The translations under genes were made by a program, and so were the position numbers. From Candidatus Dadabacteria bacterium (GTDB lineage: Bacteria > Bdellovibrionota_C > UBA2361 > J046): DNA of 63,267 bases. Positions 27,214-44,648 of this stretch are shown piece by piece. The first letter of the stretch is position 1. Every line of letters starts with the position of its first letter. The stretch spans positions 1 through 63,267 of the forward strand of contig RFHI01000055.1 of the NCBI GenBank assembly GCA_003696425.1, read 5' to 3'. A model generated the notes under the pieces. The model ran no database searches, had not been told where the DNA came from, and saw nothing but the letters and a program-made list of their open reading frames with translations.

Positions 27214-27229
27214 TCTTACTCAAATCTCC

Positions 27230-27682
27230 TTACGGTGACTCATTAGAGTTAACATATGGCACATTGGACGCTTTTGACTCGCCGTTTCCAAGCTGACTTT
27301 CAAGCTCAAAGGCATCCTGTACTGCCCAGCGTTCTTTAAGAACTTTAAGGTAGTAATAATGAGCTGGAACCAGATCACCATGACTATTTAAATGATCAGG
27401 AATCCACATTATTCTTACTACAGCAGGTTGCATTACCGGCTTGACTGGCTGTGGTGTATGCGCCCGTTGGTATGAAGCCATCTGTTCAAGTGCCTGTCGA
27501 GCAGTGTCAAACGGTCCGCTTCCACCAAGAGCATGGTCATTGGGCTCACCCTTAAAGGCCACTGGGCTGGGAGGTTCACTAAAGGGATTAAGAACGTTAC
27601 CAACTGAAGCACAGGCGTTTAACAAGAGTAATATAGTCAGCAACGTTGTGAATTTAGTCAATTTAACAGTTTTCATGATCAA
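27230..27682 (-). CDS. T4SS outer-membrane lipoprotein, TraV-like
   Basis: 150 aa with lipobox LLNAC. It lies between the TraB-like and TraC-like genes, as traV (or the TIGR03751 lipoprotein) does. Confidence 0.5.
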   Translation of the reverse strand: MIMKTVKLTKFTTLLTILLLLNACASVGNVLNPFSEPPSPVAFKGEPNDHALGGSGPFDTARQALEQMASYQRAHTPQPVKPVMQPAVVRIMWIPDHLNSHGDLVPAHYYYLKVLKERWAVQDAFELESQLGNGESKASNVPYVNSNESP

Positions 27683-27707
27683 CCTCTTAAAAAACGCTAT
27701 AAGTCAC

Positions 27708-28940
27708 CTAATCAAGTGAAGTAAAAACCACTCCACTGTCTTCATCCTCTAATTCATCATATAAATCCGGTATAGTTACCGGCTTTGAAAATACAGCAGT
27801 GGCCTCACGGCCTGAATATATTCTGACATGGGCCGGCATATTTTTTAGCCTTTCTTTCAAAAGATTTGCCCAGCTTTCAGCTCCTGACGCTAGCATTTTA
27901 CCGGCAGTATAAACAGGAACGTTTCCGGTAAGATTCTCCACAACTGTTCCGTCAAATCCGGCTGTCTGTCTGGACTGACTTTTTGCAATCCCATCGCCCA
28001 AAGCCCCCAGGCCTCCTACCATCATTGTACCGGCAATAGCCTTACCGAGTGGATCAATAAGAATGCCTTCCATGCCGCGAATACCATCTTCGCCGACCAC
28101 CCAGCCGTCAATCGAAACCGTTTTACGACGACCACTATTAGGAAGTCTTATGCTCATAGTTGTCAGACGGAAAAGTGCTCTTGCATTCGCAATTGATCCC
28201 TGGGCTGCAGCCATAATGTGCGCCTCTCCAACTGGCAGGGTAGAACCATCAGGACCTTTGATCGGCCCAATTGTTTTAAGCACAACGGGATAGGGAGTCC
28301 CATCAGTGGGGGCATCAACACCTGCCAGAAGTTTAAATCTTACCGAGTCACCAGGACCAATATAAACTACTCGACCCGGTTCGGGGGGAGCTGGTGGCAC
28401 AGGTTCCTGGTCCTCCAACGAACCAAAAGTATCAAGAGCGTTTTCGTCAAATGCCGGTGGCACATCACCACCATATGAAGCAGCTGGCTCCTGAGACGGG
28501 TCCTGCCAGTCCACCGGTTCACCTGGATTATAATTATCTTCACCAGGCGGCATATATCCTGCTGGCGCTGCCTCAGTTTCTTCTATGCGTTCAAGTATTT
28601 TCTTAAATATCTCAGCTGTGCGAGCCTCGTACTGTTTCATATTTTCACGATTTTCCTGCAGCTCTTGCTGCTGCTTTTTAGTCTGCTCATTGAGCTGTTC
28701 AAGCTGCTTGGAAAATGCTGTTATTAAGTCCTTGTATGCTTCTTCCGCCCCCATAGCACCGCTATCCGGGTTTTCAGGTATGGTCTGATGCAATTTGGTA
28801 ATTGGTCTCCTGTGAGGACGCGGATTGGGCATAATCATCCAGACTAAGAAGAACAAAACCACTCCTCCTACAATTACCTGGGTCTTGCGATCTTCCTTAA
28901 TTAAAAGCTGAAAATCCTGTAATTTCTGTTTGATACTCAT
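27708..28940 (-). CDS. traB: T4SS core protein, TraB/VirB10-like
   Basis: 410 aa: short cytoplasmic N-terminus, one TM helix, a coiled coil (QLNEQTKKQQQELQENRENMKQYE), a Pro-rich linker (PVPPAPPEPG) and a C-terminal beta-rich domain. This is the VirB10/TraB architecture and gene position. Confidence 0.65.
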   Translation of the reverse strand: MSIKQKLQDFQLLIKEDRKTQVIVGGVVLFFLVWMIMPNPRPHRRPITKLHQTIPENPDSGAMGAEEAYKDLITAFSKQLEQLNEQTKKQQQELQENRENMKQYEARTAEIFKKILERIEETEAAPAGYMPPGEDNYNPGEPVDWQDPSQEPAASYGGDVPPAFDENALDTFGSLEDQEPVPPAPPEPGRVVYIGPGDSVRFKLLAGVDAPTDGTPYPVVLKTIGPIKGPDGSTLPVGEAHIMAAAQGSIANARALFRLTTMSIRLPNSGRRKTVSIDGWVVGEDGIRGMEGILIDPLGKAIAGTMMVGGLGALGDGIAKSQSRQTAGFDGTVVENLTGNVPVYTAGKMLASGAESWANLLKERLKNMPAHVRIYSGREATAVFSKPVTIPDLYDELEDEDSGVVFTSLD

Positions 28941-28947
28941 CTTTGAT

Positions 28948-29754
28948 CTACCTTGTTTTTCTAGGTCTGGTTATTACATAAACTTTTGCCGTGTCTTTAC
29001 CAGATATCTGTTGCTCGATTGTTAAGGGTCGGGCAGCAATCTCCCAGCGGTTAGCACTTATTGCCCGCGTACCGTCCAGCCGGAATGTAGCCGGATTAAG
29101 CAGCTGAGTCTGATCTAAAAGATTTTGAGCATCCAATACATAGCCCCATAAATTTGGTCCGATAAAAATCTTGTCTATAGTGGTAAGCAACGTGCCATCG
29201 TTCAAAACCACTGTTCCTTTGTATTTATCTGTCATCTGATAACCACGGATTGAATCCTTACCGAATTCAGCAACCAGTACCATCTCACGCATTAATCCAC
29301 TGACCTGACTTGGAGGCGCATATTCATATTGCCGTTCTTTGTGTCGTGGCAAGTCTTCTTCTTCCGATGAAAGGATCAGTCCACGGCGGCTGTCAGTTAC
29401 ATTGACAACATCGTCACGAGGCTTTTCATCAGTGGCACGCTTAATGCGAATGGGGTAGGATCTCCCATCCTCTAACCGAACAATCGCAGCTTCACCTGCT
29501 GTTGTAAGGCTTTCATTTGCGAAAATGATCAGATCGGCATCTTTACGATCCAGCATTACCGCTGAAACTTTCTTCTTGAAACCGCCCGAGATTTTGCCCG
29601 GAAAATGAACCTGGGTCGGTTCCCCGGGGGCTACCCGTATTTCAATCTCTTTATTCTCAAACTCTACTTCACGAGCCATTGCAGCGCTGCTATTTATGAG
29701 TAGCAGTCCTAACATTAATAAAAGCATCTTTCCTGCTAAACAGTCTCTCTTCAT
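28948..29754 (-). CDS. traK: T4SS periplasmic/outer-membrane core protein, TraK/VirB9-like
   Basis: 268 aa with a signal peptide and beta-rich sequence. It lies between the TraE-like and TraB-like genes. Confidence 0.55.
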   Translation of the reverse strand: MKRDCLAGKMLLLMLGLLLINSSAAMAREVEFENKEIEIRVAPGEPTQVHFPGKISGGFKKKVSAVMLDRKDADLIIFANESLTTAGEAAIVRLEDGRSYPIRIKRATDEKPRDDVVNVTDSRRGLILSSEEEDLPRHKERQYEYAPPSQVSGLMREMVLVAEFGKDSIRGYQMTDKYKGTVVLNDGTLLTTIDKIFIGPNLWGYVLDAQNLLDQTQLLNPATFRLDGTRAISANRWEIAARPLTIEQQISGKDTAKVYVITRPRKTR

Positions 29755-29765
29755 TGCTCTACTCC

Positions 29766-30413
29766 CTAATTTAAAACGTTTTCATGCTTTACATCCGTTA
29801 TAACAATCCCGTATGGATTAAGCGGATTACGTGGTACAGTCGTCATAGTTACCGTAAAACGTGACCTTACCGGTGGAAGTTCACGTCCGGCTATTATCTT
29901 TAAACGTTCTCCTGTTACACTGAGTACAGCAGTATCACGTGAAGGCCTTGTTATTTTAGTCTTAAGCGGATCTGCGAAAAATATCTGGGTACGATTTGTT
30001 GTTTCGATTGCCTGAAGTTCGGTTTCCATCATTTCTTTGCGAAACTTGGTAAGCATTGGTTCACGGAGCATTTCAGCTGCTTTGAGAAATTGCCTGCGAG
30101 CCACATTGGACTGATAGCTTGCTATGAGATTAATAAACTCTGTACCGGTATTAATGAACTCAGTATCCGGTATTTCCTGAGCCTGGTACTGCCCCGGCAG
30201 CGGCTTAGCTGGAACATTCAAGATAGTCGTGCGTGTGCCGTAGAGCCACATGCACATTATTAACGTAAAAAATGTTATTGGTACCTGTAGAACTGCAATA
30301 CCGCGCCAGAGCATGGCCTGCTCACGGTAGTTCTCCCAGAGCTTAAAGGTGTCATTCTCACCACGAGAATCGATGATATTGGCATCTTTAAGTATCTTTG
30401 CTGCCTTAGCCAT
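29766..30413 (-). CDS. traE: T4SS inner-membrane protein, TraE/VirB8-like
   Basis: 215 aa with a single TM helix (IAVLQVPITFFTLIMCMWLY) and a periplasmic domain whose spacing resembles F TraE (FINLIASYQSNV...TQIFFADP...VTGERL). Confidence 0.55.
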   Translation of the reverse strand: MAKAAKILKDANIIDSRGENDTFKLWENYREQAMLWRGIAVLQVPITFFTLIMCMWLYGTRTTILNVPAKPLPGQYQAQEIPDTEFINTGTEFINLIASYQSNVARRQFLKAAEMLREPMLTKFRKEMMETELQAIETTNRTQIFFADPLKTKITRPSRDTAVLSVTGERLKIIAGRELPPVRSRFTVTMTTVPRNPLNPYGIVITDVKHENVLN

Positions 30414-30458
30414 CTAAAAAAACCTCCAGAAAATTAAAACCTGTTCGGATGCTCAAAA

Positions 30459-30902
30459 CTACTGCGACTCTTCCTCTTCCTCCATTAAGTAGATGAAATT
30501 GTCGTCATCATCCTCCAAATCTTCTCCGTTGCCTTCAAAAATCTGATCCAACCCGAGTTTCATGTACATACTCTCAGTATCCTGTTCTCTAAGTGGCGCG
30601 CCACTCCAGATCGGCTGAACACAGGCAGGCGCCGGTATGCCCGGAGGACAAGCCCCCATTGCTGCCATAACTGCGTTACAAATGCCGCGCTCCTCATCCG
30701 GAAATTTTGAACGAATTGCTACCATGCCATAAACAACAGCAAGTCCCAGGCCAATAAAAAGGGGCATTGAACGAGCAAGATTCATCTGAAGAACTTCCGG
30801 GGCTAACATGAAAACTGTTATACCCGATATCCAGTCGGAGATTTTTGCTCCAAGCAGGGTATAGCTCTCATTTAAGCAGGGTATTACAGTTCCATTGTCC
30901 AT
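30459..30902 (-). CDS. traL: T4SS membrane protein, TraL/VirB3-like, with poly-acidic C-terminal tail
   Basis: 147 aa. IPCLNESYTLLGAKISDW matches the TraL N-terminal pattern (iPxyLdxpxxxlg). Two TM helices. The tail is GEDLEDDDDNFIYLMEEEEESQ. Confidence 0.5.
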   Translation of the reverse strand: MDNGTVIPCLNESYTLLGAKISDWISGITVFMLAPEVLQMNLARSMPLFIGLGLAVVYGMVAIRSKFPDEERGICNAVMAAMGACPPGIPAPACVQPIWSGAPLREQDTESMYMKLGLDQIFEGNGEDLEDDDDNFIYLMEEEEESQ

Positions 30903-30927
30903 ATTTAAACCCTTTTATTTAATATCA

Positions 30928-31275
30928 TTACTTCTGTCCTCCAGAGAGCCTCGGATCAGGCTCAAAGCGCACACCCTTTTCAGTAATCACCGGCTGCGGA
31001 TCAAGAATCTTCTCCAGATCGTGTGCTCTATCAATTAAAGTTGTACGCCACTCTTTTGTATTTAACAGCGCCTGCGGATCTGCCATTTGCATGCCGCGAT
31101 CAAATTCCCGCACGGCAGCAAGAAGTAAAGATCTGGCTCTGGCATAGTGGCCAACTGCCGCTGCAAGCTCAGCCCCACGAGCGCGCTCAAGAGCTGCCGA
31201 AGTATTCTCCGCAGAGGCTATCTGCGCCCATATCAGCACAAGCCCCAGGCAGACAAGATATCTGAGATTATTCAT
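30928..31275 (-). CDS. small secreted helical protein, first gene of the T4SS operon
   Basis: 115 aa with a signal peptide (LVLIWAQIASA). Positional analogue of the small secreted proteins at the head of G-type tfc operons; no firm motif. Confidence 0.45.
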   Translation of the reverse strand: MNNLRYLVCLGLVLIWAQIASAENTSAALERARGAELAAAVGHYARARSLLLAAVREFDRGMQMADPQALLNTKEWRTTLIDRAHDLEKILDPQPVITEKGVRFEPDPRLSGGQK

Positions 31276-31604
31276 TTTTTTGCTCCCTCAAAGAGATTGA
31301 CACAACTCTGTTTCTGGAGTCAGTTCAATACTGTTATGAGGGTGAAAGTGCTCAATGATACGTAAAGTGATAATTTAATCAGCAGATTTTAATTATTGAG
31401 GGCCAGCCGTAAATTTCAGAAGCAGAATCTTTTAAATTAACGATATTAATTCTAGAGGTCCGAGCGCCCAAAGGGCGCACTGCGCCATAATGGCCTAAAA
31501 TTGCTTAGAAACTTAATAAATATTAAAATTGCTCCAGTTAGTCTAGAGATACTACGCAGTAACAATTTAACTTAACTAATTCAAAAGCAAGGTACTAGTT
31601 CCAG
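31276..31604. promoter_or_regulatory. divergent promoter region of the two T4SS operons; candidate oriT/operator
   Basis: AT-rich 329-bp gap between divergent operons with an isolated GC-rich element at 31464-31486: gcgccc-aaa-gggcgc, overlapping ggcgc-act-gcgcc (mutually exclusive hairpins). tctagag is repeated at about 31451 and 31541. Confidence 0.4.
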
Positions 31605-33665
31605 GTGTCATCGCTCAAACCTGATAAGGTTATAGAAAAGGAAGTAGGAGAGCTAACTTTACCTGCTGTCCGTAGAGGCAAAAGCCTTCTTATTATTGCT
31701 GTAATTTTGCTGTTAACCGTCACAGCATTTTTCATTGTAACCGTAACAGGTAGCCAGTTATCCACAGCCAGAGAATTTAGTATTAAAAAACAACTTGTAA
31801 AGTCAGGCAGCCCCTGGGCTGTGCAGCTGGTTAAAAGCGAGATAGCCTATGAAAAGTGGCTTATGCAGCATGCCTCTGATAGTGAGCTTTATATATTTAA
31901 AGGCGTTGTCGGTTTTGTTTTAAGCTCAGCCCTGAAACGTGAAGTCTCTTCAAAAAAAAGTATATTTGGCAACGCAATTTCCCGAAGCTTTGAAGCTGCG
32001 CTCCTACGTATCTCGTTTTTTATTCTGGCATCCTGGCGGCTCTGGCTGTTGGCGATACTAACTGCAATTTACCTCGGCATCAAATCATGGAAAGTTCATA
32101 AGGGTGACGATCTTTTGGGCCAATCTGGAAATGGCAGATTATTCTATTCCGGTATTAATGCCCGACTTGAAAATCTTACTTCTGAAGGCATTCCAGATAT
32201 TCACCGCGTGGGCCTGGCATGCCCCGAAAAAGAGAGCGAAAGCAGAACCAGAAACTCAGCGATTGGAAAGTTGCTTGACGCTTATGGTGCACTGAATGAT
32301 ACGAACATCACGCTGGCAGCTATTATATTAAAGCACTCTGACTGGGCAGGATTTATAGTTGATGGCGCTACAGAACTGCCAGTAACTGAGTTCAACCTTG
32401 CAGCAACATCTTTGGAAGTTCTCAACAAAGCATTGGCAGTGCATGCTCTCTATCAAAAAACTGGCGCACTACCCTCACAACTTCCCTGGGAAGAACAGCC
32501 AGTTTCAACAAATCAGCAGGAACTCATGCTTATAGCTGAACAACAGCAGCGGGTAACCAGCCTGAAGGAATACGGGCGGCTGCTAGAATATGCTCTTGAT
32601 CGTGTACTTACTCCGGCAATGCGGCAGATAATATCTGAAATACCTGCTGAAGAAATAGCCACACTGGTTCTTGCCCACCAGGCTGGCAAGGTACTCGCCT
32701 ATACTCCGGCAGGTGGCAGCTGGTTTAAAGAATCAAAATTCGAGCAACTCTCAGCACGGGCAGTACTCCACTCTGTAGCTGCTTACGGTCAGGAATACGA
32801 CTACTATACGAGAACGAATTTACGACAGGCATTGATTTACGGATCGCGCAGCACAGTATTTGGGCCGGTTCGACTACCTGTTGATATCAGCGCGCGGGCA
32901 CTTGCCATGCGACAATGGGTAGAGATCCTTATGGCCACGCCGGCCAATCTGGTCCCTACTGCTGATGAGGTAGAGCTCTTTGGCCTGGTTCGGGAAAGTT
33001 TTACTCTGTGGCAGGCCACATTTTTTGATAGGATAGTTGCCGGAGACCAAAAATTCAGTGGAGTTTTTGCGCCCCGAGGTGTAAATCTGGTGTTCTTTAG
33101 TCTTGCCGCAATTATTGAATCACTTGAAAGCTGTTTTGACAAACAGGCTCTGGACCGCCTGATGTATCTTATCGAGCTTGCGGGTAAGCGTCAGGCAGAG
33201 CTTATAAGAAACCTTGAAAAATCCGATGACGAAGCCCTTACTATCCCTATTTATGAACGAATTCCAGTACCAGTCAGTGAAAGTGAAATACAAAAACTTA
33301 GTAAGCACCATCAAATAGACCCTGATTCACTGCGACACTGGTCTGCATTACGTTATATTTTAAGTGCACACGGCTTTTTAGCACGCAGAGTAGGGGACCG
33401 TACCGTGCCGGAAAGCGGTGTAACTTTTGTAGTTTTTGAATCTAATCAAAGCACCACCGAAGCCGGTAAGTCCGAATTAATTGGTCGTGCAGCACAGGTT
33501 GTTTTTAGGGGCAATCCCTTTCAGGAGCATTTCGGCCCGCACTGGCGCGATAAGTTTACCGCAGTAAACTCTGCTGTGATCGCAGAAACTCCCGAAGAGT
33601 ACCAGCGGGTGTTAAACGGCAGAACTGAACCAGGTCAAACAGAAAATGAGGCAGTTAACGGATAA
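31605..33665 (+). CDS. polytopic membrane protein with large cytoplasmic domain, encoded immediately upstream of the coupling protein
   Basis: 686 aa with a GTG start. There are 3-4 TM helices in the first 160 aa or so, then about 520 aa of soluble sequence with no catalytic motif I recognise. It ends 13 nt before the T4CP start. Confidence 0.5.
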   Translation: MSSLKPDKVIEKEVGELTLPAVRRGKSLLIIAVILLLTVTAFFIVTVTGSQLSTAREFSIKKQLVKSGSPWAVQLVKSEIAYEKWLMQHASDSELYIFKGVVGFVLSSALKREVSSKKSIFGNAISRSFEAALLRISFFILASWRLWLLAILTAIYLGIKSWKVHKGDDLLGQSGNGRLFYSGINARLENLTSEGIPDIHRVGLACPEKESESRTRNSAIGKLLDAYGALNDTNITLAAIILKHSDWAGFIVDGATELPVTEFNLAATSLEVLNKALAVHALYQKTGALPSQLPWEEQPVSTNQQELMLIAEQQQRVTSLKEYGRLLEYALDRVLTPAMRQIISEIPAEEIATLVLAHQAGKVLAYTPAGGSWFKESKFEQLSARAVLHSVAAYGQEYDYYTRTNLRQALIYGSRSTVFGPVRLPVDISARALAMRQWVEILMATPANLVPTADEVELFGLVRESFTLWQATFFDRIVAGDQKFSGVFAPRGVNLVFFSLAAIIESLESCFDKQALDRLMYLIELAGKRQAELIRNLEKSDDEALTIPIYERIPVPVSESEIQKLSKHHQIDPDSLRHWSALRYILSAHGFLARRVGDRTVPESGVTFVVFESNQSTTEAGKSELIGRAAQVVFRGNPFQEHFGPHWRDKFTAVNSAVIAETPEEYQRVLNGRTEPGQTENEAVNG

Positions 33666-33678
33666 GATTTAAGAGCAG

Positions 33679-35838
33679 ATGGCCAGAGATTACAAAAATA
33701 TTACAATTGATGAAATACAGCAGCAGGAACGAGCGCGTGCGCTCAAAAATGTTGCGCTTGCCAGCGGGGCCGGTCTGGCACTGGCTGCCAGCCCACTTAT
33801 GAGCTCAGCAGATCCAACTCTTTTTCTGGGGTTAGGCGTTTTGCCGGCTTACGCTCTGGCACAGTATGCCCGGACACTCAGCAGGCAGATCTGGATTGAG
33901 AGAGAACGCCGTAAAGAATCGCGTTTAAGAGGTGGCAGGAAGGTACTGGGCATGCCGCCGCAACGGGATGCTTTTCAAAAGGAGCTTGAAAGGTGCAGGC
34001 AGGAAGGTAAAAAAATCATTGATCGCTACATGGTTGGTTTTTCACTGGAGACAGGTGAACCCCTCTGGATAGATGATAATGATCTCTGCAGCCATGCCTG
34101 CGTGTTTGCCAAGACAGGTGTAGGTAAAACTCTCTGGCTGGAATCATTGATGTTTCAGCAAATGGCCCGCGGCCGTGCCAGCGGCTGTACTTTTATTGAT
34201 GCCAAGCGGGATTCCGGCACACTGGCACAGATCATTTTAATGGCGCTTATAACTGGCCGAATAGAAGATCTTATTGTTGTTGATCCGTTTGACCCGGTAC
34301 ACTCATACAATTTTGTCATGACCAATCAGCGCGCTGATGTAAAAGCCCGTAAAGTGCTAAGAGCCGGACTGCCACCAACATCTGATCAAAGCACTACCAA
34401 GCACTACGACAGGCTGGCGGCTGATTCCATTTACCGGCTGGTACGCGCAATGGAGCGCTTTGGACTATCGTGGTCAATAAAGGATATGGCAGTGGCCCTT
34501 TCAGCTTTCAATTTAGCATATCCGCAGTTAAGGGAGATGCTCAGCAGAATAGGCGCAAGACAGGCAATGGTTGAACTGGGGCATCTGGCAGCAAGCTATA
34601 GAAACCCGAAGGGCACTCTGGATACTACCAGAATAACTGACAACCTGCGGGGAATTGCATCTGAGCTGCATGCGATTTCCGGCAGTGAAATGGGAGGCGT
34701 TTTCTGTACCAGTTATACCGATCTGGTGCTTACAGATGCCATTTTGCGCGGCAAGATAATTTATTTTATGCTGCCGCGTCTTGAAGAAGCCGAGAGTGCT
34801 TCCCGCATGGTTAAGGTCTTTAGAGAAGATCTTGAAGTTGCTATAGGTGAAATCACTTCTTCCCGCGCTTTTAATCTTGAAGATCCCCATCTTGTAATAA
34901 TAGATGAAGGCGCATCAACTTTTGGTCCGACCTGGGCAAATCTATTTGAACTTGCAAGAAAAGGGCGCTTTGCGCTGATTTTTGGAGCGCAATCCACGGG
35001 CGGATTAACCGATCAGTCAATGGGGCTAAGCGAACAGTTCTATGAACGTGTAATGGCCAACGTTAACCTTAAGGTGATTATGAGGGTAGGGGACAACCGT
35101 ACTGCCGAGGATATGGCCGAGTGGATTGGTAAAGTTTCAACTCTTAAAAAATCAGTTGGGGCCGGAGTTACTACCAGTCTCTCTTCTAATGTGCTGCGCG
35201 GAACATTAGATGTTACCGGCAGAAAAACGGGTGGAGAATCACAAACTATAAGTGTACAGGAAAGCGAAGAATACCTGGTAAGTCCTGAAGAATTAAAACA
35301 TGAAATGTCGGCAGAGAAGGGCCTGGCCTGGTTTGATCTCGGTGACGGGCGCATAGTTAAAGGACGTGCCTTCTGGTTTAATGCCGAGCTGCCGGATAGC
35401 TGGGAGGGCAGAGAATTTCTTACAAGACTTGAGCGCTATGAGGTTGACGAAATAGGCCTGGCCGACTGGGTTGATGAACAGATTCTGTATCGTGAGCAGG
35501 ATGAAACTACTGATACCGCTAACGGCACAAAAAACAGCAGCGGGCCAAAAAAGATTGCTGCCACTGAAACTAAAAAACTGCCTGACTTACAGCAAAAAGC
35601 CGAAACAGCAGAGTCTTCTGCGGAAAAAAGCGGTCCATTTAAACTCAGTCCTATTCCGCGTGGAGCTGGAGGAAAACCACGCGGTTCAGTCACAGCTCTT
35701 CCGGCAGGGGGACATCAAAAGGCAAAGCAGCATGATACGGCCAAGTCTGCTCAAAAGGATGCTAACGATGAAGGCGGCAGTGAAAAATCAGCTAAAGAGT
35801 CCAAAAATCCGCCGCGCAGACGGCTTAAGTTCCGCTGA
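33679..35838 (+). CDS. traD: type IV coupling protein, TraD/VirD4 family ATPase
   Basis: 719 aa with two N-terminal TM helices. Walker A is VFAKTGVGKTLW and Walker B is HLVIIDEGAS. Lys/Ala/Glu-rich disordered C-terminal tail. Confidence 0.8.
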   Translation: MARDYKNITIDEIQQQERARALKNVALASGAGLALAASPLMSSADPTLFLGLGVLPAYALAQYARTLSRQIWIERERRKESRLRGGRKVLGMPPQRDAFQKELERCRQEGKKIIDRYMVGFSLETGEPLWIDDNDLCSHACVFAKTGVGKTLWLESLMFQQMARGRASGCTFIDAKRDSGTLAQIILMALITGRIEDLIVVDPFDPVHSYNFVMTNQRADVKARKVLRAGLPPTSDQSTTKHYDRLAADSIYRLVRAMERFGLSWSIKDMAVALSAFNLAYPQLREMLSRIGARQAMVELGHLAASYRNPKGTLDTTRITDNLRGIASELHAISGSEMGGVFCTSYTDLVLTDAILRGKIIYFMLPRLEEAESASRMVKVFREDLEVAIGEITSSRAFNLEDPHLVIIDEGASTFGPTWANLFELARKGRFALIFGAQSTGGLTDQSMGLSEQFYERVMANVNLKVIMRVGDNRTAEDMAEWIGKVSTLKKSVGAGVTTSLSSNVLRGTLDVTGRKTGGESQTISVQESEEYLVSPEELKHEMSAEKGLAWFDLGDGRIVKGRAFWFNAELPDSWEGREFLTRLERYEVDEIGLADWVDEQILYREQDETTDTANGTKNSSGPKKIAATETKKLPDLQQKAETAESSAEKSGPFKLSPIPRGAGGKPRGSVTALPAGGHQKAKQHDTAKSAQKDANDEGGSEKSAKESKNPPRRRLKFR

Positions 35839-37660: not shown

Positions 37661-40357
37661 TTAGTCTCTAAGCCTTTTGCGCGCGTTCTTCATCAGTTCC
37701 TGATTATCACTGTAGCAGCGGTAAAAGCCCTCATAAAACATAAACTTCTCAGGCGCATCACGAATTAATATCTCTGGTCTGGCCAGATAATCAAAATGAT
37801 GATTGGCTGCATCCTCCCAGACATCAACTCTTGTATAAAGATCATCATCAAAATGGTGGCGGCCATTTCCGGCATTATACGACATTAACAGGTTTATCCC
37901 TTTACTGAACGTAAACATAACCGTTTTGCCATCGATTTCATACGGCCAGTCCTGATACATTCTCCTGCCGTTAAGCTCAAAGACTCTTCCTTTTGGGTCA
38001 AGTAACCTGTAACTGTCCGCAGGATAAACCCGCCAGCCGGATATACGCATAAAGCCCTCAAGGTCAAAACGCCAGAATGACGGGCCAAGTACCCGTTCTG
38101 TTTTTCTGGAAATTAAAGTGCGATAACGCGAAGCTCTTGCATTAACTGATTTAAGGCCCATATCGTCAATGGTTTTCTTTAGCTGCTTCTCTATGAAGCT
38201 ATTATCTGCACCTCTTACCGCAAGCGGACTGACAAAAATGATAAGCTGTCTGCTTTCAGTGTCTGACGCCAGAACCGGCGTATCATACTCTGCGGGCCGT
38301 ACGGTAATCCCAGAGGTATAAACCTCAAGATTATCTTTAGGCAGAATCTTTAAAAGTGCAGCAATTTTTTTAACGGCATCTTCTGACCAGTACTTAAACT
38401 TGCCATTCTGCGGCTCGGGAGTTTCAAAATTTACACCATAGTCCCGCTCAAGCCTGAGAATTCTTTTAGCTGCCCGGGCTATCTCTCTAAGTTCTGCAGG
38501 GTCACTAACAGAATTTCTAGCTGCCCTTAATGCATCCAGGGTTGAACAGGCAGCTATAAAGCGATGCCTGCCATATTCTGTTTCGCGGTAAAGACCTTCA
38601 CTGTCAGCCAGTTTTTTTGCATCTTCAGCACGCCTTTCAAGCTGCTTCAAAAACTTCGTCGTAGTAGCTTTGCTCCAGTGCTTCAGCACCCGTTTATTTG
38701 GAATGGTAATAGCCTGTAATGTTCTTCCAAGTACCCCCACGGCTGTAAGCTCTCGCAAACCATAATCGTTTCTGTCAATCAGAAAGTCCTCTCCCAGGCG
38801 GTCAATAACTTTGGCAAGCTCAAGCGGATTCCTGCTCTGCCGTAAAAGTACATTAAGAAGCCTGTTAGCTTTTTCAGGCTCATGAGTTGTCACAATATTC
38901 TTTGCTATATCGGCTATAACCTTATCACGCTCAGAAGCTACAACGACCCTTTCAGTATCACCAAGCTGCACACTGTGACCTAGTTCGTGTAAGAGTACCC
39001 CGGTAATGTGCTTTACGCCTGATTCTCTGACCTGATTTCTATCGTCCTTTAATGCATAATCAGCAACGTAAACTGCACCATCGTCATCATTACGCGCGCC
39101 CGAACAGGTCAGATCGTTATCGATTACACTAACCCGTTTAAGCTCACCAATACGGGGTGTTGTAATCAGTACACCCTCCGGAATTAGTTTCAGCGCATGC
39201 CTTACCTGATCCAACTCAGAAGCACTCCAGAACTTCTGATAACGGCCGTTGCCACCCTTTTCGCCTGTAAGGTTAATCCCATATTCAAATTCGACCGATA
39301 ACATTCCATCCAGCAGTCTGGCCAGCTCATAGCGTGATTTACGGTCGCGTCTTACCCGTCTTTCAGTAGCCAAAAAGGTAAGATCTTTTCTGGCAATTTT
39401 TTTTAAGTGCCGCGCGTATTCAGTGTCCCGCAACTCCTTAAATTGATTAATTTTATCTATGCGTTCTTCAAGGGCAAAGCGCACATTATCAAAATAAGCA
39501 GATAAATGCTGTTGAGTTGCTCGACTGCCCGGCAGTACAGGAAAATATGCTTCCCGCATTGCTGCCCCAATCTTTGCCCGCGCAACAAATTCCTTAAATG
39601 TGGCTCCCAGTTTTGCAAGTCGTCTTGCTCCAATATCCTTTACAAGATCTTCAAGCTCTGCCTGATCTTTTACTGAAGAGAGAATCATTTTAAGAATGAT
39701 GCTCTTGCGCTGCGGATTAATGCCGCGAAGCTGTGTTCTCCTGAATGTTTTGGCGAGTTCCTCGGTTGAGCTGAAATAAAGTACCTGGGGAAGCTGGGAC
39801 TGCAAAAAGCCCTGATCCCCTTTTTCTTTTAAGATTAATGTAATAAGCCCGCGTGAAAAGGCAGCCCTCATGGGCTTTGATACGTGTTTTAGGGCAAGCA
39901 GCTGGTCAGTTAAATGTAAATCCGGATTTTTTAAAAAATCACGCTCTGATTTGGCGTTCTTTTCGGCCAGTTCATAAAGAAGTCCCTGATAAACAGCATG
40001 CGTGAGCGTATACTGTTCGCTGGAGGTAACCGGTAGAGAGAGTATTTCCTGAGTGCGCCTGCTGAATCCGCTGGCAGAAAACGTAACACCAAGAGATTTA
40101 AAGAGCAGCGCTTTTTCCTGATTATTTAACGCTTCGCCGTAATCAATCGATTTGAGGATTTTTCTAAGTTCTCTTCTGGTACGGCTATTAAGCGGCCTGT
40201 CCCTTTCTATACACTCTTTAAGCTCATCTGGAATAGCTCGCAGGGCTGCCCTGACCTGTTCCCATGGGGACTCCGGCAAATTGCCCGATAAGTTATCTGC
40301 ACTTCCAACTGCCGGTCCGTGGCCCTCTTTACTGCTGGGATCATTACCTTCAAACAT
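37661..40357 (-). CDS. large HExxH zinc-metallopeptidase-like protein with internal module duplication; candidate secreted effector
   Basis: 898 aa. HELGH lies at nt 38975-38989. Two homologous modules of about 105 aa occupy aa 305-410 and 585-690 (RDTEYARH/RETEYGRH; EYGINLTGEKGGNGRYQKFWSASEL vs DYGVNFETPEPQNGKFKYWSEDAV; LKLIPEGVL vs LKILPKDNL). Only the first is followed by HExxH. Confidence 0.6.
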   Translation of the reverse strand: MFEGNDPSSKEGHGPAVGSADNLSGNLPESPWEQVRAALRAIPDELKECIERDRPLNSRTRRELRKILKSIDYGEALNNQEKALLFKSLGVTFSASGFSRRTQEILSLPVTSSEQYTLTHAVYQGLLYELAEKNAKSERDFLKNPDLHLTDQLLALKHVSKPMRAAFSRGLITLILKEKGDQGFLQSQLPQVLYFSSTEELAKTFRRTQLRGINPQRKSIILKMILSSVKDQAELEDLVKDIGARRLAKLGATFKEFVARAKIGAAMREAYFPVLPGSRATQQHLSAYFDNVRFALEERIDKINQFKELRDTEYARHLKKIARKDLTFLATERRVRRDRKSRYELARLLDGMLSVEFEYGINLTGEKGGNGRYQKFWSASELDQVRHALKLIPEGVLITTPRIGELKRVSVIDNDLTCSGARNDDDGAVYVADYALKDDRNQVRESGVKHITGVLLHELGHSVQLGDTERVVVASERDKVIADIAKNIVTTHEPEKANRLLNVLLRQSRNPLELAKVIDRLGEDFLIDRNDYGLRELTAVGVLGRTLQAITIPNKRVLKHWSKATTTKFLKQLERRAEDAKKLADSEGLYRETEYGRHRFIAACSTLDALRAARNSVSDPAELREIARAAKRILRLERDYGVNFETPEPQNGKFKYWSEDAVKKIAALLKILPKDNLEVYTSGITVRPAEYDTPVLASDTESRQLIIFVSPLAVRGADNSFIEKQLKKTIDDMGLKSVNARASRYRTLISRKTERVLGPSFWRFDLEGFMRISGWRVYPADSYRLLDPKGRVFELNGRRMYQDWPYEIDGKTVMFTFSKGINLLMSYNAGNGRHHFDDDLYTRVDVWEDAANHHFDYLARPEILIRDAPEKFMFYEGFYRCYSDNQELMKNARKRLRD

Positions 40358-40551
40358 TAAACTACTAATGTGAACTGCCTAAAAATAACTGCATAAAAAA
40401 CAGCGATTCTAATATACCGCTTCAGAGTAAAATAGCATAAAGATAAAACGGCATCTTAAATAAACTATTTTCTTAAGTAATATCAATTAGTTATCTGCTT
40501 AATTGCTTTTGAATAACAGCTGATAACAGTTTAAAATCAATACATAATTTT

Positions 40552-42639
40552 TTGTATGGTGGTCTGGTACAGCAGATGACGCGGCGCGGAAAAAATCAGG
40601 GCAAAAACCCGTCTCAATCTGAAATTGATTTTTCAATCAGTCTCTCAATGCCCGACCCTGGAGTTTCAGAACAGAGTGATCGTACGTCCCCCGACAGTAA
40701 GCGCTTTTTTAAATCAGATGAAAGTTCTGTTGCAGATCTACAGACACGCACTGTAACAGACATTCTTCCAGGTTATCCTCTTAAAGCTGATAACATTGAG
40801 TGCATACCTGAACAGGTCAAAGCAGTTTTAAGAGCAGAAAGCGGCAAAAATTTTCTCTTTGAAGCACCTACCGGAAGCGGCAAGTCGTACATCGCTGCCA
40901 TGATAGCAGCCGGAAAGATCGCTGCCGGCAAACGCGTACTTTATCTGACCGCGACTGAAACTGCTCTTGGGCAGTTTGAAGGCGACCTGGAACGAACCCT
41001 TGCCGTGCCACGCCAACAATTCTTGGCTGTAAGCGGCAAAATACCGCCCACGGAAAGAGAGAAACTCTATAGTGAAGGCCTCCCTTCACTGCTTGCTGCA
41101 CTACCAGGTACTATTCAAAATGATCTTGAAAAAGGCCGCATTAAACCATCAGATTTCAGTCTTATCATAATTGATGAAGTACATATGCTGCGAGGCGATC
41201 ACGCCTTCTCAAAAGTGCTGGAGTACTTTAAAGATCACTCCCCCCAGATAATCGGCATGACTGCCACGGTGCCGGTCAAAGAAGAACGGCGTGCGTTTCT
41301 ACTTGAAAGGCTCGGTGTACAAAGTGAAACAGCTCTTAATCTCCCGGTACGGCCTCTAATAGAAAAGGTAATTTACTGTGAGCCTTCCAAACGCCAGAGA
41401 GATGCCGGCGCTCTTTTAGAACGGGCAGCCGGAGATCTGTTCACTGAGCTTCTCAACATGTCCGTGATGCAGGAAATAATAACGAATGCTGAAGAATTAA
41501 AGTCAAAAAACGATAAAGCACGGCAATTTGTTGAGGCCTATAACAAAGTGACAGGCGCGCCTCCCTACGGGTTTAAAATGCCCTCAGCATCTGATTACAA
41601 CACTATACACAACTATATTTGGAGCCTGTTTCAGGGCTTTTTTCCTAAAAGCGGGGTGAACACACCGGCCTATCGCAAACATCAAAATCCTTACGGCGGC
41701 CCCCTTTCTGTTTCAGCAGCGATCGGTGTTGTAAGACACCTGCACTCGTCTCTTTTGACAATTGGTCTTGAGCCAACACTAAATAAAATAACTGAAGATC
41801 TAATCAGGCTGTATACCCCTCAACGAGTACTTAAAAAACGGCCGGGCCGGTACATGCGACGAGCTTATCTTAACCCGCACACGCTTGAAGCTATAGATAC
41901 CATTACTAAAGGCACACCCTTCCAAAGAATACTGCCGCAAGTCGATATGAATGTACCTGAAGAGCGTAGCCGCCTGCGCACCACTCTTCAAGTGGCCTTC
42001 TCAGAAGACGATCCTCAGTCTGCACGGGGCCAGAAGCTCCTAAAATTTGTCGGTGAACTAAAAAAATCTATTCCGGATATGATCAGAGAATTAAGGCAGA
42101 GTCCGGAACCCGACCACCCTGCCCTGCCGCTGGTAACTGAAGCCCTCCGCGATCATCTGAGAACACATCCGGGCAGTAAGGGTATAATCATCACCGAAGA
42201 TACCTATCATGCCAAAACGTTGGCTGAGATTTTAACTGACGAGCTGAAGGATGTTGGCATCAAACCGGTCGTAGTTAAAAGTGAAAATAGTGCCAGGGCC
42301 AAGCGGGCAACACAAAAAAATATTGAAGCCTTTAAGAAGGGAGAGGTCAATTTAATTGTTGGCACATCTGCAATTGAACAATCCTTCCACGCTGCAGACA
42401 CCGATTTTGTGGTTATCTGGAACCCCACATCGGTGTGGGAACGCTTTGCTCAGCAGCGTGGACGCGTGCGACAGCGCGGCCAAGCTGAAAGCGCTCTGGT
42501 ACTTACTAAAATTACCCGTGGGACAGAAGACGAGATAAGAGACCGCGTGGCTCGCAGTAAAAACCGAAGGAAAGAACGTGAAAGGCAGATTCGCGCCGCC
42601 AAAGAATTACAGGGGGATCTCTTTGGAGATCTCGGATAA
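40552..42639 (+). CDS. SF2 DEAD/DEAH-box helicase, Hef/FANCM/RIG-I-like layout
   Basis: 695 aa (TTG 40552, or ATG 40576). Motif I is FEAPTGSGKSY; motif II is PGTIQNDLEKGRIKPSDFSLIIIDEVHML; motif III is MTAT. An insertion of about 300 aa precedes RecA2. Motif V is VGTSAIEQSF and motif VI is QQRGRVRQRG. Confidence 0.8.
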   Translation: MYGGLVQQMTRRGKNQGKNPSQSEIDFSISLSMPDPGVSEQSDRTSPDSKRFFKSDESSVADLQTRTVTDILPGYPLKADNIECIPEQVKAVLRAESGKNFLFEAPTGSGKSYIAAMIAAGKIAAGKRVLYLTATETALGQFEGDLERTLAVPRQQFLAVSGKIPPTEREKLYSEGLPSLLAALPGTIQNDLEKGRIKPSDFSLIIIDEVHMLRGDHAFSKVLEYFKDHSPQIIGMTATVPVKEERRAFLLERLGVQSETALNLPVRPLIEKVIYCEPSKRQRDAGALLERAAGDLFTELLNMSVMQEIITNAEELKSKNDKARQFVEAYNKVTGAPPYGFKMPSASDYNTIHNYIWSLFQGFFPKSGVNTPAYRKHQNPYGGPLSVSAAIGVVRHLHSSLLTIGLEPTLNKITEDLIRLYTPQRVLKKRPGRYMRRAYLNPHTLEAIDTITKGTPFQRILPQVDMNVPEERSRLRTTLQVAFSEDDPQSARGQKLLKFVGELKKSIPDMIRELRQSPEPDHPALPLVTEALRDHLRTHPGSKGIIITEDTYHAKTLAEILTDELKDVGIKPVVVKSENSARAKRATQKNIEAFKKGEVNLIVGTSAIEQSFHAADTDFVVIWNPTSVWERFAQQRGRVRQRGQAESALVLTKITRGTEDEIRDRVARSKNRRKERERQIRAAKELQGDLFGDLG

Positions 42640-42656
42640 GAGAGCCAGGGCTTAAG

Positions 42657-44648
42657 ATGGTCAATCATTCCCTACACAACAGCCAGAAGAGTGAAAGCGG
42701 CTCTATTGAGACATCCGATCTCAGCAGGGCAGCCAGAGCCCTTCCTCACTTTATACCAGAGTGGAAATACAGCTGGGTTAATAGTGTTGAGCAGCTTAAA
42801 ACTCTGGCAGATATACTCAGCAATGTAAAAGTATTTTCGATCGATACAGAAACCGGTGGAAGAGCGCAGTATGGTGAGACACTAAGCACGCACCTTTCAC
42901 TTATACAGATAGGATTTATAGATAAAAATGGACAAGGCCAAACATACCTGGTTGATGTACGCCAACTTGAAAGGCTTTTGTCAACAGCTGATGACCGGGC
43001 AAGCAATCCGTTACTTGCACTTAAAGCAGTGCTCGAAAACGGGAATATTAAAAAAGTTGCTCATAATAAGAGCTTTGAGATTGAGCAACTTGCCAAATAC
43101 GGCATTAAACTTACCAACACCGATGACACCATGGATATGGCCAGAAGAGCAAGGCCTGACCTGGCTTCGGTTACGCTGGGGGCTTGTGTTACAGAAGTAC
43201 TCGGCTTTTATCTTCCAAAAGAAGAGCAAACTACCGACTGGCTGGAGAGGCCGCTTACAAAGGAGCAAATTGACTATGCACGAGCTGATGCAGAAATCAC
43301 CCTGATTTTATATAGCCGGCTTAAAGAGCTTTTACAAGAACAGCGGCCACCTGAAACTGACAGGCCTGAGAAGCTTCTTGCCTCCATCAGAGATGACTAC
43401 ATTCAGTCCAGAAGGCTTTTAAGAGAAAGCGGCATTACAGTTCAATATGCCCTCCAAAGCGCTAAAATACGTGCAATTGAAAATAAAATCAGAGAATTGC
43501 TCGAGCACGAGTTCGATCTCACTGGCTGTGATCCGTTAAAGATTAAAACATCCCTTGGAAAAGTTTTGCTTGCCACTCGTGCTGTAACAGCGCTGGATGT
43601 AGAAAAGCTTAAAAGGCAGCACCCTGAAGCTGCTGAACAGCTGCTTCGCTATGAGGTTAAACGCTCGGAACTTAGAAGGGAGCTGCGCGCACGGGTTTAT
43701 CACGACCCCTCATACACTGAAGGCCAGATGTTTGCTGAGCTCGAGCAGATTCTGCCGGTTGTTGGCCGTGGCTCCATGCATATTAAGGAACTTACTCTTG
43801 ATCTTGATGAATATTACGGGACTGAACACGACCGAATGGGTACTGTTTTATCACAGATTGACAATGAATTTCTGCAGAGGCAGGAAATTACACCTGCAGC
43901 TCTCAGCGTGCTTGCTGCGCACGCAAGAAAATATATACCTGAACTGCCACGTAATTCTTTGCCGGCAGCCGCCTTAGAGATTTTAGATAAATCTTTTGAC
44001 TATATCAGCACAGGCATGTCAGATGAGCAAAAAAATTCGATAAGAAAGCACAATGCCGCGATAATTATTGAACTCAAACAAACGCTGGACAATATGGATA
44101 AAGAAGTTGATGCTGCAATACCTGCTGAGGCTACAGCAGCATTCGTTAAACTTAATGATATCGCCGGGCCACTTTTCCAGCAGCCGATTGATCTTGAAAA
44201 ACCTGTAACTGAACTTCTTAAAGCTCTTATTAAAGAACGCGGAAAGCAGCTTGCACTTTTAAGAGAAGCAGGCATTGCTAATAGCTTTACAGTCTGCTGT
44301 GTAAGAGCAGCAAACACCCGTGGTAAATTAGAAGAAGTCATTGATCAGCGTGTTTCAAAGCGACGGGTCGCACCGTTACACCTTAAAACTGAGGCCGGAA
44401 ATGTTACCCTGTCTGTCTCACGCATCAGGACATTGAAATATGAAAAGCTCAAAGAGCTTTATCCTGAACTGGCCGAAAAGCTGGCTTATCAGACCACTAC
44501 CCAGCAGGAGCTTATCGAGTTTTGGACTAAAAAAGGAATAAGCAGAACCGCTCAGGAAAAACTGCTTAAAACTCTATGGACTGAACAGGGGCGATCACAC
44601 CCCTCTGTTTCAATTTACCCGCGCTACAAACTGCTCTATACAGACTGA
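42657..44648 (+). CDS. DEDDy 3'-5' exonuclease (RNase D/WRN-exo type) with long duplicated C-terminal extension
   Basis: 663 aa. ExoI is FSIDTETGG, ExoII is KVAHNKSFEIEQL and ExoIII is QIDYARADAEI. The C-terminal 430 aa contain two gapless homologous modules, aa 250-335 and 530-615. Confidence 0.8.
   Translation: MVNHSLHNSQKSESGSIETSDLSRAARALPHFIPEWKYSWVNSVEQLKTLADILSNVKVFSIDTETGGRAQYGETLSTHLSLIQIGFIDKNGQGQTYLVDVRQLERLLSTADDRASNPLLALKAVLENGNIKKVAHNKSFEIEQLAKYGIKLTNTDDTMDMARRARPDLASVTLGACVTEVLGFYLPKEEQTTDWLERPLTKEQIDYARADAEITLILYSRLKELLQEQRPPETDRPEKLLASIRDDYIQSRRLLRESGITVQYALQSAKIRAIENKIRELLEHEFDLTGCDPLKIKTSLGKVLLATRAVTALDVEKLKRQHPEAAEQLLRYEVKRSELRRELRARVYHDPSYTEGQMFAELEQILPVVGRGSMHIKELTLDLDEYYGTEHDRMGTVLSQIDNEFLQRQEITPAALSVLAAHARKYIPELPRNSLPAAALEILDKSFDYISTGMSDEQKNSIRKHNAAIIIELKQTLDNMDKEVDAAIPAEATAAFVKLNDIAGPLFQQPIDLEKPVTELLKALIKERGKQLALLREAGIANSFTVCCVRAANTRGKLEEVIDQRVSKRRVAPLHLKTEAGNVTLSVSRIRTLKYEKLKELYPELAEKLAYQTTTQQELIEFWTKKGISRTAQEKLLKTLWTEQGRSHPSVSIYPRYKLLYTD

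Follow-up and report, generated by a model that had tools for sequence, protein, structure and literature searches.

Two adjacent genes on the forward strand of the window analysed here, the 63,267 nt of contig RFHI01000055.1 from a Candidatus Dadabacteria bacterium (GenBank assembly GCA_003696425.1), encode a superfamily 2 (SF2) helicase of the Hef/FANCM family and a 3'-5' exonuclease of the DEDDy type. The helicase open reading frame (ORF; 40552-42639) gives 695 amino acids (aa) from a TTG codon; the database call (P0001) begins eight codons further on at an ATG and gives 687 aa, and this ATG (40576) is probably the start. The exonuclease ORF (42657-44648) encodes 663 aa from an ATG and lies on the same strand, 17 nt beyond the helicase stop (42639), exactly where an earlier note made from the DNA sequence had placed it. 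With more than 660 codons each and match E-values of 1e-19 to 1e-33, both ORFs are far beyond chance, and the two genes form a real operon. Their features are:

40552-42639, forward strand: Hef/FANCM-family SF2 helicase gene (Pfam DEAD, ResIII and Helicase_C; NCBIfam Hef; PDB 1wp9; AlphaFold model and Foldseek)
40615-40632, forward strand: N-terminal motif QSEIDF in the disordered tail, at the position of the family's Q-x-x-hydrophobic-x-aromatic motif; candidate clamp- or partner-binding motif
40783-41337, forward strand: RecA-like lobe 1, with motifs Q, I, Ia, Ic (PGTIQNDL), II (DEVH) and III
41359-42111, forward strand: insertion of about 250 aa, helical throughout in the AlphaFold model, that separates the RecA lobes at the HEL2i position; its sequence is family-specific by an insertion profile
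42112-42531, forward strand: RecA-like lobe 2, with the DHPxx motif and motifs IV, V and VI
42610-42636, forward strand: C-terminal peptide QGDLFGDLG, matching four of the five positions of the beta-clamp-binding consensus QL(S/D)LF; candidate clamp-binding motif
42657-44648, forward strand: DEDDy 3'-5' exonuclease gene (PF01612), 17 nt 3' of the helicase gene
42768-43334, forward strand: DNA_pol_A_exo1 (DEDDy) domain, with ExoI D62/E64, ExoII E141 and ExoIII Y207/D211
43371-43673, forward strand: repeat 1 of a duplicated helical module of about 100 aa (self-BLAST)
44211-44513, forward strand: repeat 2 of the duplicated helical module (self-BLAST), with no Pfam or PDB sequence match

The helicase and its exonuclease partner

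The helicase motifs read in the earlier note are all present: I (PTGSGKS, aa 106), II (DEVH, 208), III (MTAT, 236), V (GTSAIEQS, 604) and VI (QQRGRVRQ, 634). The segment that it had likened to a Hef-type block, PGTIQNDL...IIIDEVHMLRGDHAF, aligns residue for residue with TPQTIENDL...IVFDEAHRAVGNYAY of Pyrococcus furiosus Hef (1wp9, E 9e-33), and DHPAL sits where the Hef-type HPK motif DHPKE stands, ahead of the second RecA lobe. The top NCBIfam model was Hef (PRK13766; 146.8 bits against a cutoff of 610), and RecG, RadD, RecQ and Lhr-type models scored 14-33 bits against cutoffs of 570-880. The helicase domain of P. furiosus Hef (1wp9, E 9e-33) also headed the sequence matches in PDB, followed by LGP2, MDA5, RIG-I, FANCM and Dicer.

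An AlphaFold (AF2) model of the helicase was built from 99 homologues (predicted local distance difference test, pLDDT, 85; predicted template modelling score, pTM, 0.83). In it, aa 1-50 are disordered, an insertion (aa ~265-520; all-helical at aa ~270-510) separates the two RecA lobes, and the C-terminus is one long helix; the insertion is therefore about 250 aa long in the model, shorter than the 300 or so estimated before. Foldseek ranked 1wp9 first (E ~1e-23), then the FANCM translocase domain (9el5, E 5e-21), followed by DRH-1, RIG-I, LGP2, MDA5 and the Dicer helicase, with E-values of 1e-20 to 1e-18 for the DRH-1, RIG-I-like receptor (RLR) and Dicer helicases. Alignments to 1wp9, FANCM and RIG-I extended over about 600 columns or more, with a template modelling (TM) score of 0.67-0.70 relative to 1wp9. 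Membership of the Hef/FANCM/RIG-I/Dicer family of SF2, as the earlier note had called it, is thus sound by both sequence and fold.

The helicase is not Hef proper, because it has no ERCC4 or HhH domain in Pfam and its insertion is not matched by PF21210, the Hef helical bundle. PF21210 was found in 66 of the 74 classical Hef-like proteins in a comparison set, and ERCC4 together with HhH in 25 of them. The protein ends about 40 aa past motif VI. Pfam detected DEAD, ResIII and Helicase_C only, with no RIG-I_C-RD, CARD, dsRBD, HRDC or other RLR/Dicer accessory domain.

In the exonuclease, PF01612 covers aa 38-226 (E 3.6e-26; 92.4 bits against a cutoff of 23.6). The ExoI (DTE) and ExoIII (Y-x3-D) motifs stand as previously read, but the earlier note had overlooked that the ExoII acid is Glu (HNKSFEIE), not Asp, so that the pattern reads DEEYD. 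This is a conservative change. The best NCBIfam match was the bifunctional 3'-5' exonuclease/DNA polymerase (PRK14975, 66.8 bits); RNase D (TIGR01388 rnd) reached 46.9 bits (2e-12, cutoff 299). PF01612 relatives in PDB include RNase D, Rrp6, NrnC and the WRN exonuclease. Neither HRDC nor the polymerase palm/finger region (PF00476) was detected in the protein.

Beyond the exonuclease domain lies a C-terminal extension of 428 aa, close to the 430 aa noted before. In a self-BLAST run without composition correction, aa 239-339 aligned with aa 519-619 (101 aa, 29% identity, E 3e-12). No homologue of the extension was found in Pfam, in PDB or, by jackhmmer, in the other partner proteins, and the idea that the extension is common to other partner proteins was ruled out on the same three counts. 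A profile of relatives that combine the exonuclease with PolA covers aa 28-279, about 50 aa past the domain and into repeat 1; the second repeat was matched at E 0.05, and no polymerase catalytic motifs were detected. It is possible that the extension is a degenerate scaffold derived from PolA. The two repeats share a recurring pattern, 'LRE(S/A)GI ... KT..G.V.L ... EKLK..(H/Y)PE.AE.L', which faintly resembles the exo-to-pol segment of family-A polymerases and is statistically weak. A single-sequence AlphaFold prediction of the exonuclease was unusable (pLDDT 37).

Metagenomes were scanned with a profile of three helicase-linked exonucleases, and 80 loci were returned. The closest was a stand-alone exonuclease of 321 aa (L015, 41% identity), and another relative (L017) carries a family-A polymerase domain. 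The second closest (L016, 3-3251; 35% identity) is an ORF of at least 1082 aa in which an Lhr-type helicase (DEAD, Helicase_C, WH_Lhr) is fused to a C-terminal DEDDy exonuclease; it resembles one BrxHI model of PADLOC and represents an independent second combination of a helicase with a DEDDy domain. The ExoII Glu occurs in L015, L016 and L017 alike. We therefore rejected the change from Asp to Glu as a mark of helicase-linked exonucleases, as it is also found in stand-alone, Lhr-fused and PolA-linked relatives.

A rare bacterial clade with linked nucleases

Searching 1.84 billion representative proteins by HMMER with the helicase gave 2237 matches, and family members were taken from the best 150. 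Only one non-self match fell below 1e-30, and the best non-self match was 29% identical. A hidden Markov model (HMM) of the insertion was built from nine candidate relatives and run on the best 148 Hef-like representatives; beyond its nine training sequences it strongly matched P0022 and P0117 only, the next best match having an E-value of 0.0066. In neighbour-joining trees of the RecA core, with the insertion excluded, the 12 family sequences were monophyletic against 87 Hef-like sequences in 40 of 40 bootstraps. The clade forms its own branch next to Hef and does not group with Lhr or RecQ; such a grouping would have counted against the reading in the earlier note.

Members of the family are 20-30% identical to one another and fall into 90% clusters of one to five sequences. 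The named members come from metagenome-assembled genomes (MAGs) of SAR324 and Bdellovibrionales, and one group bears the JGI label 'ERCC4-related helicase'. Source MAGs of the family include GCA_020434495.1, GCA_012797725.1 and GCA_016307145.1. No relatives of the helicase were found on 72,556 plasmids (PLSDB), 50,697 phages or IMG/VR contigs, and GTDB species representatives scanned with six short helicase peptides contained no close relative. Scanning genome contigs with P0001 returned only a 49-aa motif-II match on an unrelated Eubacteriales contig. A word-indexed homologue search returned the helicase itself and three weak matches, and nothing for the exonuclease; a family-profile search gave generic RecG, Mfd and type-III-restriction-like helicases rather than family members. 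We found no description of this clade or of its nuclease partnerships in the literature.

With P0065 and P0129 counted as one lineage, the family comprises ten lineages, in which the helicase genes are arranged as follows:

Window: helicase followed after 17 nt by the DEDDy exonuclease; on its upstream side, a divergent gene for the 898-aa HExxH protein
P0005 (SAR324, the closest relative; L009): helicase preceded, with a 14-nt gap, by a DEDDy exonuclease of 668 aa
P0207/P0016 (Bdellovibrionales; L001): RecJ overlapping the helicase start; divergent 980-aa DEDDy protein
P0208/P0049 (L008): RecJ-like gene 8 nt downstream of the helicase
P0022 (L010, 1925-5686) and P0117 (L002, 8001-11777): about 1255 aa, with a complete RecJ (DHH-DHHA1-RecJ_OB) fused at the helicase N-terminus
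P0013 and P0054 (L003, L005): helicase preceded by an ABC-type ATPase and directly followed by a PD-(D/E)XK/Cas4-like nuclease of about 555 aa
P0212/P0065 (L006): 914-aa homologue of the 898-aa protein of the window, 4 nt upstream of the helicase
P0067: short contig with small unknown neighbours

The helicase is thus linked to a nuclease in eight of the ten lineages: to a DEDDy exonuclease in three, to RecJ in four (two of them fusions) and to a PD-(D/E)XK nuclease in two, one lineage having both DEDDy and RecJ. Because PF01612 and RecJ genes number about one per genome by our estimate, this linkage is not due to chance. Compared with the exonuclease domain of the window, that of L009 is 31% identical and that of L001 28%. 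The earlier note had proposed a two-gene module, and the two genes are indeed conserved as neighbours, with a 14-nt gap in L009 and in divergent orientation in L001. As the pairing recurs both in the closest relative, from SAR324, and in the Bdellovibrionales MAG, a functional module of helicase and exonuclease is supported. The N-termini of the relatives of about 1250 aa were also considered as fused DEDDy partners; this was ruled out, as they are RecJ instead.

Further genes adjoin the helicase in some of these loci. A conserved order of ABC-type ATPase (645 aa, with partial AriA/mad3-like matches), helicase and nuclease is found at L003 (2389-8373) and L005 (1-5615), followed by LigA in L003 and adjoined by UvrD in L005. 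In the P0212/P0065 lineage, a small Host_attach/baeRF_family12 gene lies convergent to the helicase gene and directly after it (L006, 9951-10448; L014, 2498-2995; L007, 2632-3087). Weak OB-fold matches (PF01336, E ~0.007 each) were seen N-terminal to the exonuclease domain in the DEDDy proteins of L009 (596-2602, aa 90-140) and L001 (2905-5847, aa 389-449). The window exonuclease is without an OB-fold; archaeal HAN has one. Flanking genes in the other loci are of housekeeping and repair type, including LigA, UvrD, ArgRS and Ffh.

Short motifs near the protein ends recur in the family. The window helicase ends in ...ELQGDLFGDLG, and the peptides resembling clamp motifs are KELQGDLFGDLG in the window and APGQRFLFGD in P0065. 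A motif of the form Q-x-x-[FLIM]-x-[FLY] or Q-x-[F]-L-F stands 67-97 aa before Walker A in nine of the 12 family sequences examined (for example QRFLFGD, QGFLFGD, QGHFDF, QRHFDF, QQYFQF and QAILDL, with QLTLF farther upstream and a degenerate QSLF in P0049); the background in 137 non-family sequences is 0.13 per 100 aa. Peptides that bind the beta clamp occupy the hydrophobic cleft of DnaN. In bacteria they follow the consensus QL(S/D)LF, are usually terminal and tolerate variation (PMC9690074). It is reasonable to predict that a terminal motif of the helicase binds the beta clamp.

Function of the pair

We interpret the pair as a helicase-exonuclease module for the processing of DNA forks or DNA ends, with a probability of roughly 0.55. 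DNA is favoured as the substrate because the partners in related lineages are DNA nucleases and because the exonuclease domain is closest to PolA-type exonuclease domains. The clade would have lost, or never had, the ERCC4 nuclease of Hef and would work instead with a separately encoded nuclease, with which the helicase may interact physically. The helicase may bind DNA that is branched or duplex (at broken ends, for instance, or at forks that have stalled or regressed) and remodel or unwind it; a 3' end exposed in this way could then be degraded in the 3'->5' direction by the DEDDy partner. Elsewhere in the family this helicase is coupled to RecJ, which works 5'->3', or to a PD-(D/E)XK nuclease of the Cas4/AddB type. 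The helicase might be anchored to the beta sliding clamp by a QxxLF-type peptide at one end (C-terminal here, N-terminal in the relatives), much as archaeal Hef is anchored to PCNA.

By analogy, the best precedent for such a pair would be archaeal Hef-HAN of Thermococcus and Pyrococcus, which the earlier note had overlooked. HAN (Hef-associated nuclease), a member of the RecJ family, has 3'-5' exonuclease activity specific for single strands; it binds Hef, which stimulates it, and has been linked to the repair of stalled forks (PMC5717133). Hef uses its disordered region to bind HAN or PCNA, and HAN has been reported from Euryarchaeota only (PMC6158738). The Hef helicase core is the nearest to ours by sequence and by fold (1wp9). 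Both systems have an alpha-helical insertion and a disordered region with a sliding-clamp-type motif, the latter a candidate in the bacterial clade, and both partner the helicase with a 3'-5' exonuclease, that of HAN acting on single strands (PMC5717133, PMC6158738). In four bacterial lineages, moreover, the partner is a DHH/RecJ-family protein like HAN. However, the window helicase has no ERCC4 nuclease, HhH2 or PF21210 match, its insertion is about twice as long and its identity to Hef is only ~21-30%. Its partner has a DEDDy (DnaQ-fold) rather than a DHH domain, the RecJ proteins of its relatives are of the bacterial type with RecJ_OB and are not HAN, and the bacterial partners are genetically linked by operon or fusion.

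The likeness to other helicase systems is more partial. FANCM, Mph1 and Fml1 belong to the same helicase family, and by fold the FANCM translocase (9el5, E 5e-21) comes second among the matches. Hef, FANCM, Mph1 and Fml1 work on double-stranded DNA and have a HEL2i-like insertion in common with RNA-activated relatives (PMC3590228). The window helicase is bacterial, much smaller and without the degenerate ERCC4/FAAP24-type C-terminus or the MHF-binding region. RLRs and Dicer have the same HEL1-HEL2i-HEL2 architecture and match strongly by fold, but the window helicase lacks CARDs, the RIG-I C-terminal regulatory domain, PAZ, RNase III and dsRBD domains, the RLR and Dicer folds rank below Hef and FANCM, and the partners are DNA nucleases. 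WRN, a RecQ helicase fused to a DEDDy exonuclease, and the RecQ-RecJ resection of bacteria likewise join a helicase to a 3'-5' DEDDy exonuclease or to RecJ, and the WRN exonuclease is among the PDB sequence matches; our helicase, in contrast, is not of the RecQ family, has no RQC or HRDC, and is a polypeptide separate from the exonuclease. In the Lhr-DEDDy fusions (BrxHI-like, PADLOC PDLC02501), the C-terminal part of the model matches the exonuclease domain (3e-16), but Lhr belongs to another SF2 family (WH_Lhr), the window helicase matches BrxHI models over RecA lobe 2 only, and no BREX genes are present. Finally, RNase D and the exonuclease of family-A polymerases share the DEDDy fold, the ExoI-III motifs and Y-x3-D with the window exonuclease, which differs from them in having no detectable HRDC or palm/finger motifs, a Glu in ExoII and the duplicated helical extension of 428 aa.

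Textbook rescue of bacterial forks relies on RecG, RuvAB, RecQ-RecJ and RecBCD. To our knowledge, fork-remodelling helicases of the Hef/FANCM type are regarded as archaeal and eukaryotic, and such a pathway is absent from model bacteria; the papers on the Hef family that we consulted deal with archaeal and eukaryotic members only. Our findings point to a monophyletic bacterial Hef/FANCM clade whose genes are joined to those of exonucleases in operons, in divergent pairs and by fusion, and show that bacteria, too, have put together the helicase-plus-exonuclease solution of Hef-HAN and WRN, though with other components. Should the terminal motif bind DnaN, the parallel with Hef-PCNA would extend to the bacterial clamp. 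The compact versions in two polypeptides and in one (the RecJ-helicase fusion) are well suited to biochemistry. More tentatively, the family as a whole may be an unrecognised bacterial branch of Hef/FANCM, made up of clamp-tethered helicase machines with interchangeable DEDDy, RecJ or PD-(D/E)XK nucleases, some with a large zincin-like protein, that act in a pathway for stalled forks or DNA ends (possibly DNA-protein crosslinks) alongside those of archaeal Hef-HAN and eukaryotic FANCM, or else form a DNA-targeting immune family.

Several observations weigh against a fork- or end-processing role. The family is very rare and patchy and evolves fast, as accessory or conflict genes typically do and core repair genes usually do not, and defence systems, too, characteristically exchange their nuclease partners. 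None of the 80 metagenomic loci has a Hef-like helicase beside the exonuclease relative. The clamp-like motif is short and degenerate, and the N-terminal copy in the window, QSEIDF, is weak. RNase D and Rrp6, both of them RNases, also belong to PF01612, and the fold scores of RIG-I, MDA5 and Dicer fall only slightly short of those of Hef and FANCM.

Among the alternatives, the serious one is a novel anti-phage or anti-plasmid module, which we regard as possible, if rather doubtful. The helicase would sense or translocate on foreign DNA and pass it to an interchangeable nuclease, with the HExxH protein or the ABC ATPase perhaps assisting; such a module would be a new helicase-nuclease immune family, kin to the ancestors of RIG-I and Dicer. 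The sporadic, low-copy distribution across phyla, the divergence to 20-30% identity and the modular exchange of effectors among lineages are consistent with this, as are the ABC ATPase (partial AriA/mad3-like) and Cas4-like nuclease that flank the helicase in L003 and L005, and the baeRF/Host_attach gene adjoining it in L006 and L014. The exonuclease also resembles the C-terminal exonuclease of the BrxHI-type Lhr model (3e-16), L016 being a fusion of that kind, and a conjugative type IV secretion system (T4SS) is encoded 4.7 kb away from the pair in the window. However, PADLOC-DB v2 gave the window proteins only partial, generic matches to RecA lobes (Cas3, DinG, BrxH, DpdF and PbeA) and to the exonuclease part of one BrxHI model, with no system partner genes and no full-length match among 5027 models. 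The lack of relatives on the plasmids, phages and viral contigs searched, flanks free of other defence genes and a neighbourhood of housekeeping genes (pabA/pabB, LigA, UvrD, ArgRS) also count against a place in a defence system, which the earlier note had entertained, and RecJ fusions and peptides resembling clamp motifs suit replication or repair better.

An RNA surveillance or decay function appears improbable. It would pair a RIG-I/Dicer-like ATPase activated by duplex RNA with a 3'-5' exoribonuclease like RNase D or Rrp6, comparable to Mtr4-Rrp6 and to degradosomes that contain helicases. The strong fold matches to RLR, DRH-1 and Dicer helicases (E 1e-20 to 1e-18) and the presence of RNase D, Rrp6 and NrnC among the PF01612 relatives (TIGR01388 rnd, 2e-12) would agree with it. 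Hef nevertheless comes first by sequence, Hef and FANCM stand above the RNA helicases by fold, and no RIG-I C-terminal, CARD, dsRBD or HRDC domain was detected; the best models for the exonuclease are of the DNA polymerase type (66.8 bits against 46.9 for RNase D), in line with L017. In the relatives, furthermore, the helicase is paired or fused with PD-(D/E)XK nucleases or with RecJ, the bacterial form of which hydrolyses single-stranded DNA only (PMC6158738). The RIG-I-like and RNA-silencing framing of the earlier note thus fits poorly with DNA nucleases as partners, with Hef and FANCM as the top folds and with the missing RLR accessory domains. Its suggestion of a eukaryote-like acquisition also appears unlikely, the best relatives being classical Hef-type proteins (a third of them with ERCC4 and HhH) and the bacterial clade; our findings provide no evidence for transfer from eukaryotes to bacteria.

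Least probable of all is an accessory role for the T4SS, in which the pair would process the transferred strand or incoming DNA for the neighbouring F-type conjugation system. Helicases and nucleases are known in conjugative DNA processing, and the pair lies 4.7 kb downstream of the gene for a TraD-like coupling protein. Yet three unrelated genes, including an asparaginase, lie between, housekeeping genes of the pabA/pabB type follow directly, no homologue was found on any PLSDB conjugative plasmid, and no Tra/Trb genes occur in the available flanks of the family loci L001-L012 and L014. The processing of T4SS substrates, as suggested before, thus finds no counterpart at the other family loci, and we see no evidence for a T4SS function.

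Neighbouring genes and the rest of the contig

Two further features lie directly upstream of the fork- or end-processing candidate:

37661-40357, reverse strand: 898-aa protein with a zincin-type HELGH at aa 457-461 (DNA 38975-38989) and two internal repeat regions, identified by homology to the L006 gene
40358-40551, no strand: AT-rich divergent intergenic region of 194 bp between the 898-aa gene and the helicase gene, with sigma-70-like promoter matches at 40509-40548

The only detectable homologue of the 898-aa protein is the 914-aa product of L006 5252-7996 (blastp 4.6e-14 and 6e-9; jackhmmer), and the two share a conserved GV[LI]L.HELGH. For the 898-aa protein, Pfam gave two matches below threshold (E 0.016 and 0.098) and none that was significant, and PDB gave no sequence match. 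The protein probably belongs to the module as its third member, a point missed by the earlier note, and it could be a protease or another accessory component. No recognisable operator, including any SOS-box-like element, was seen in the intergenic region, which contains only one weak inverted repeat.

The F-type T4SS cluster (TraC, TrbI/TraB, TraK-like and a TraD-like coupling protein) occupies 23985-35838. The earlier note was right about its presence, but the pair is not directly next to it: the 4.7 kb between them hold a 163-aa ORF, the asparaginase gene and the opposite-strand 898-aa gene. No integrase or relaxase was recognised by Pfam in the T4SS region, and a 686-aa ORF within it (31605-33665) had no match. 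Compared with the TraC proteins of PLSDB, its TraC reaches only 22-25% identity, which makes this a very divergent conjugation or secretion system in a chromosomal context. Directly 3' of the pair lie pabA/pabB-type genes and then a nitrilase-family gene, and the remaining contig is ordinary chromosome (ribBA, ispG, ubiE, a futalosine-pathway gene, a class II aminoacyl-tRNA synthetase and others). All window proteins tested are singletons at 90% identity among ~15 billion proteins, so that the source lineage appears to be poorly sampled, and the G+C content is ~45%. A Ser/Thr protein kinase domain of the eukaryotic type (PF00069) occurs in a 799-aa protein encoded just upstream of the T4SS region, at 18143-20542.

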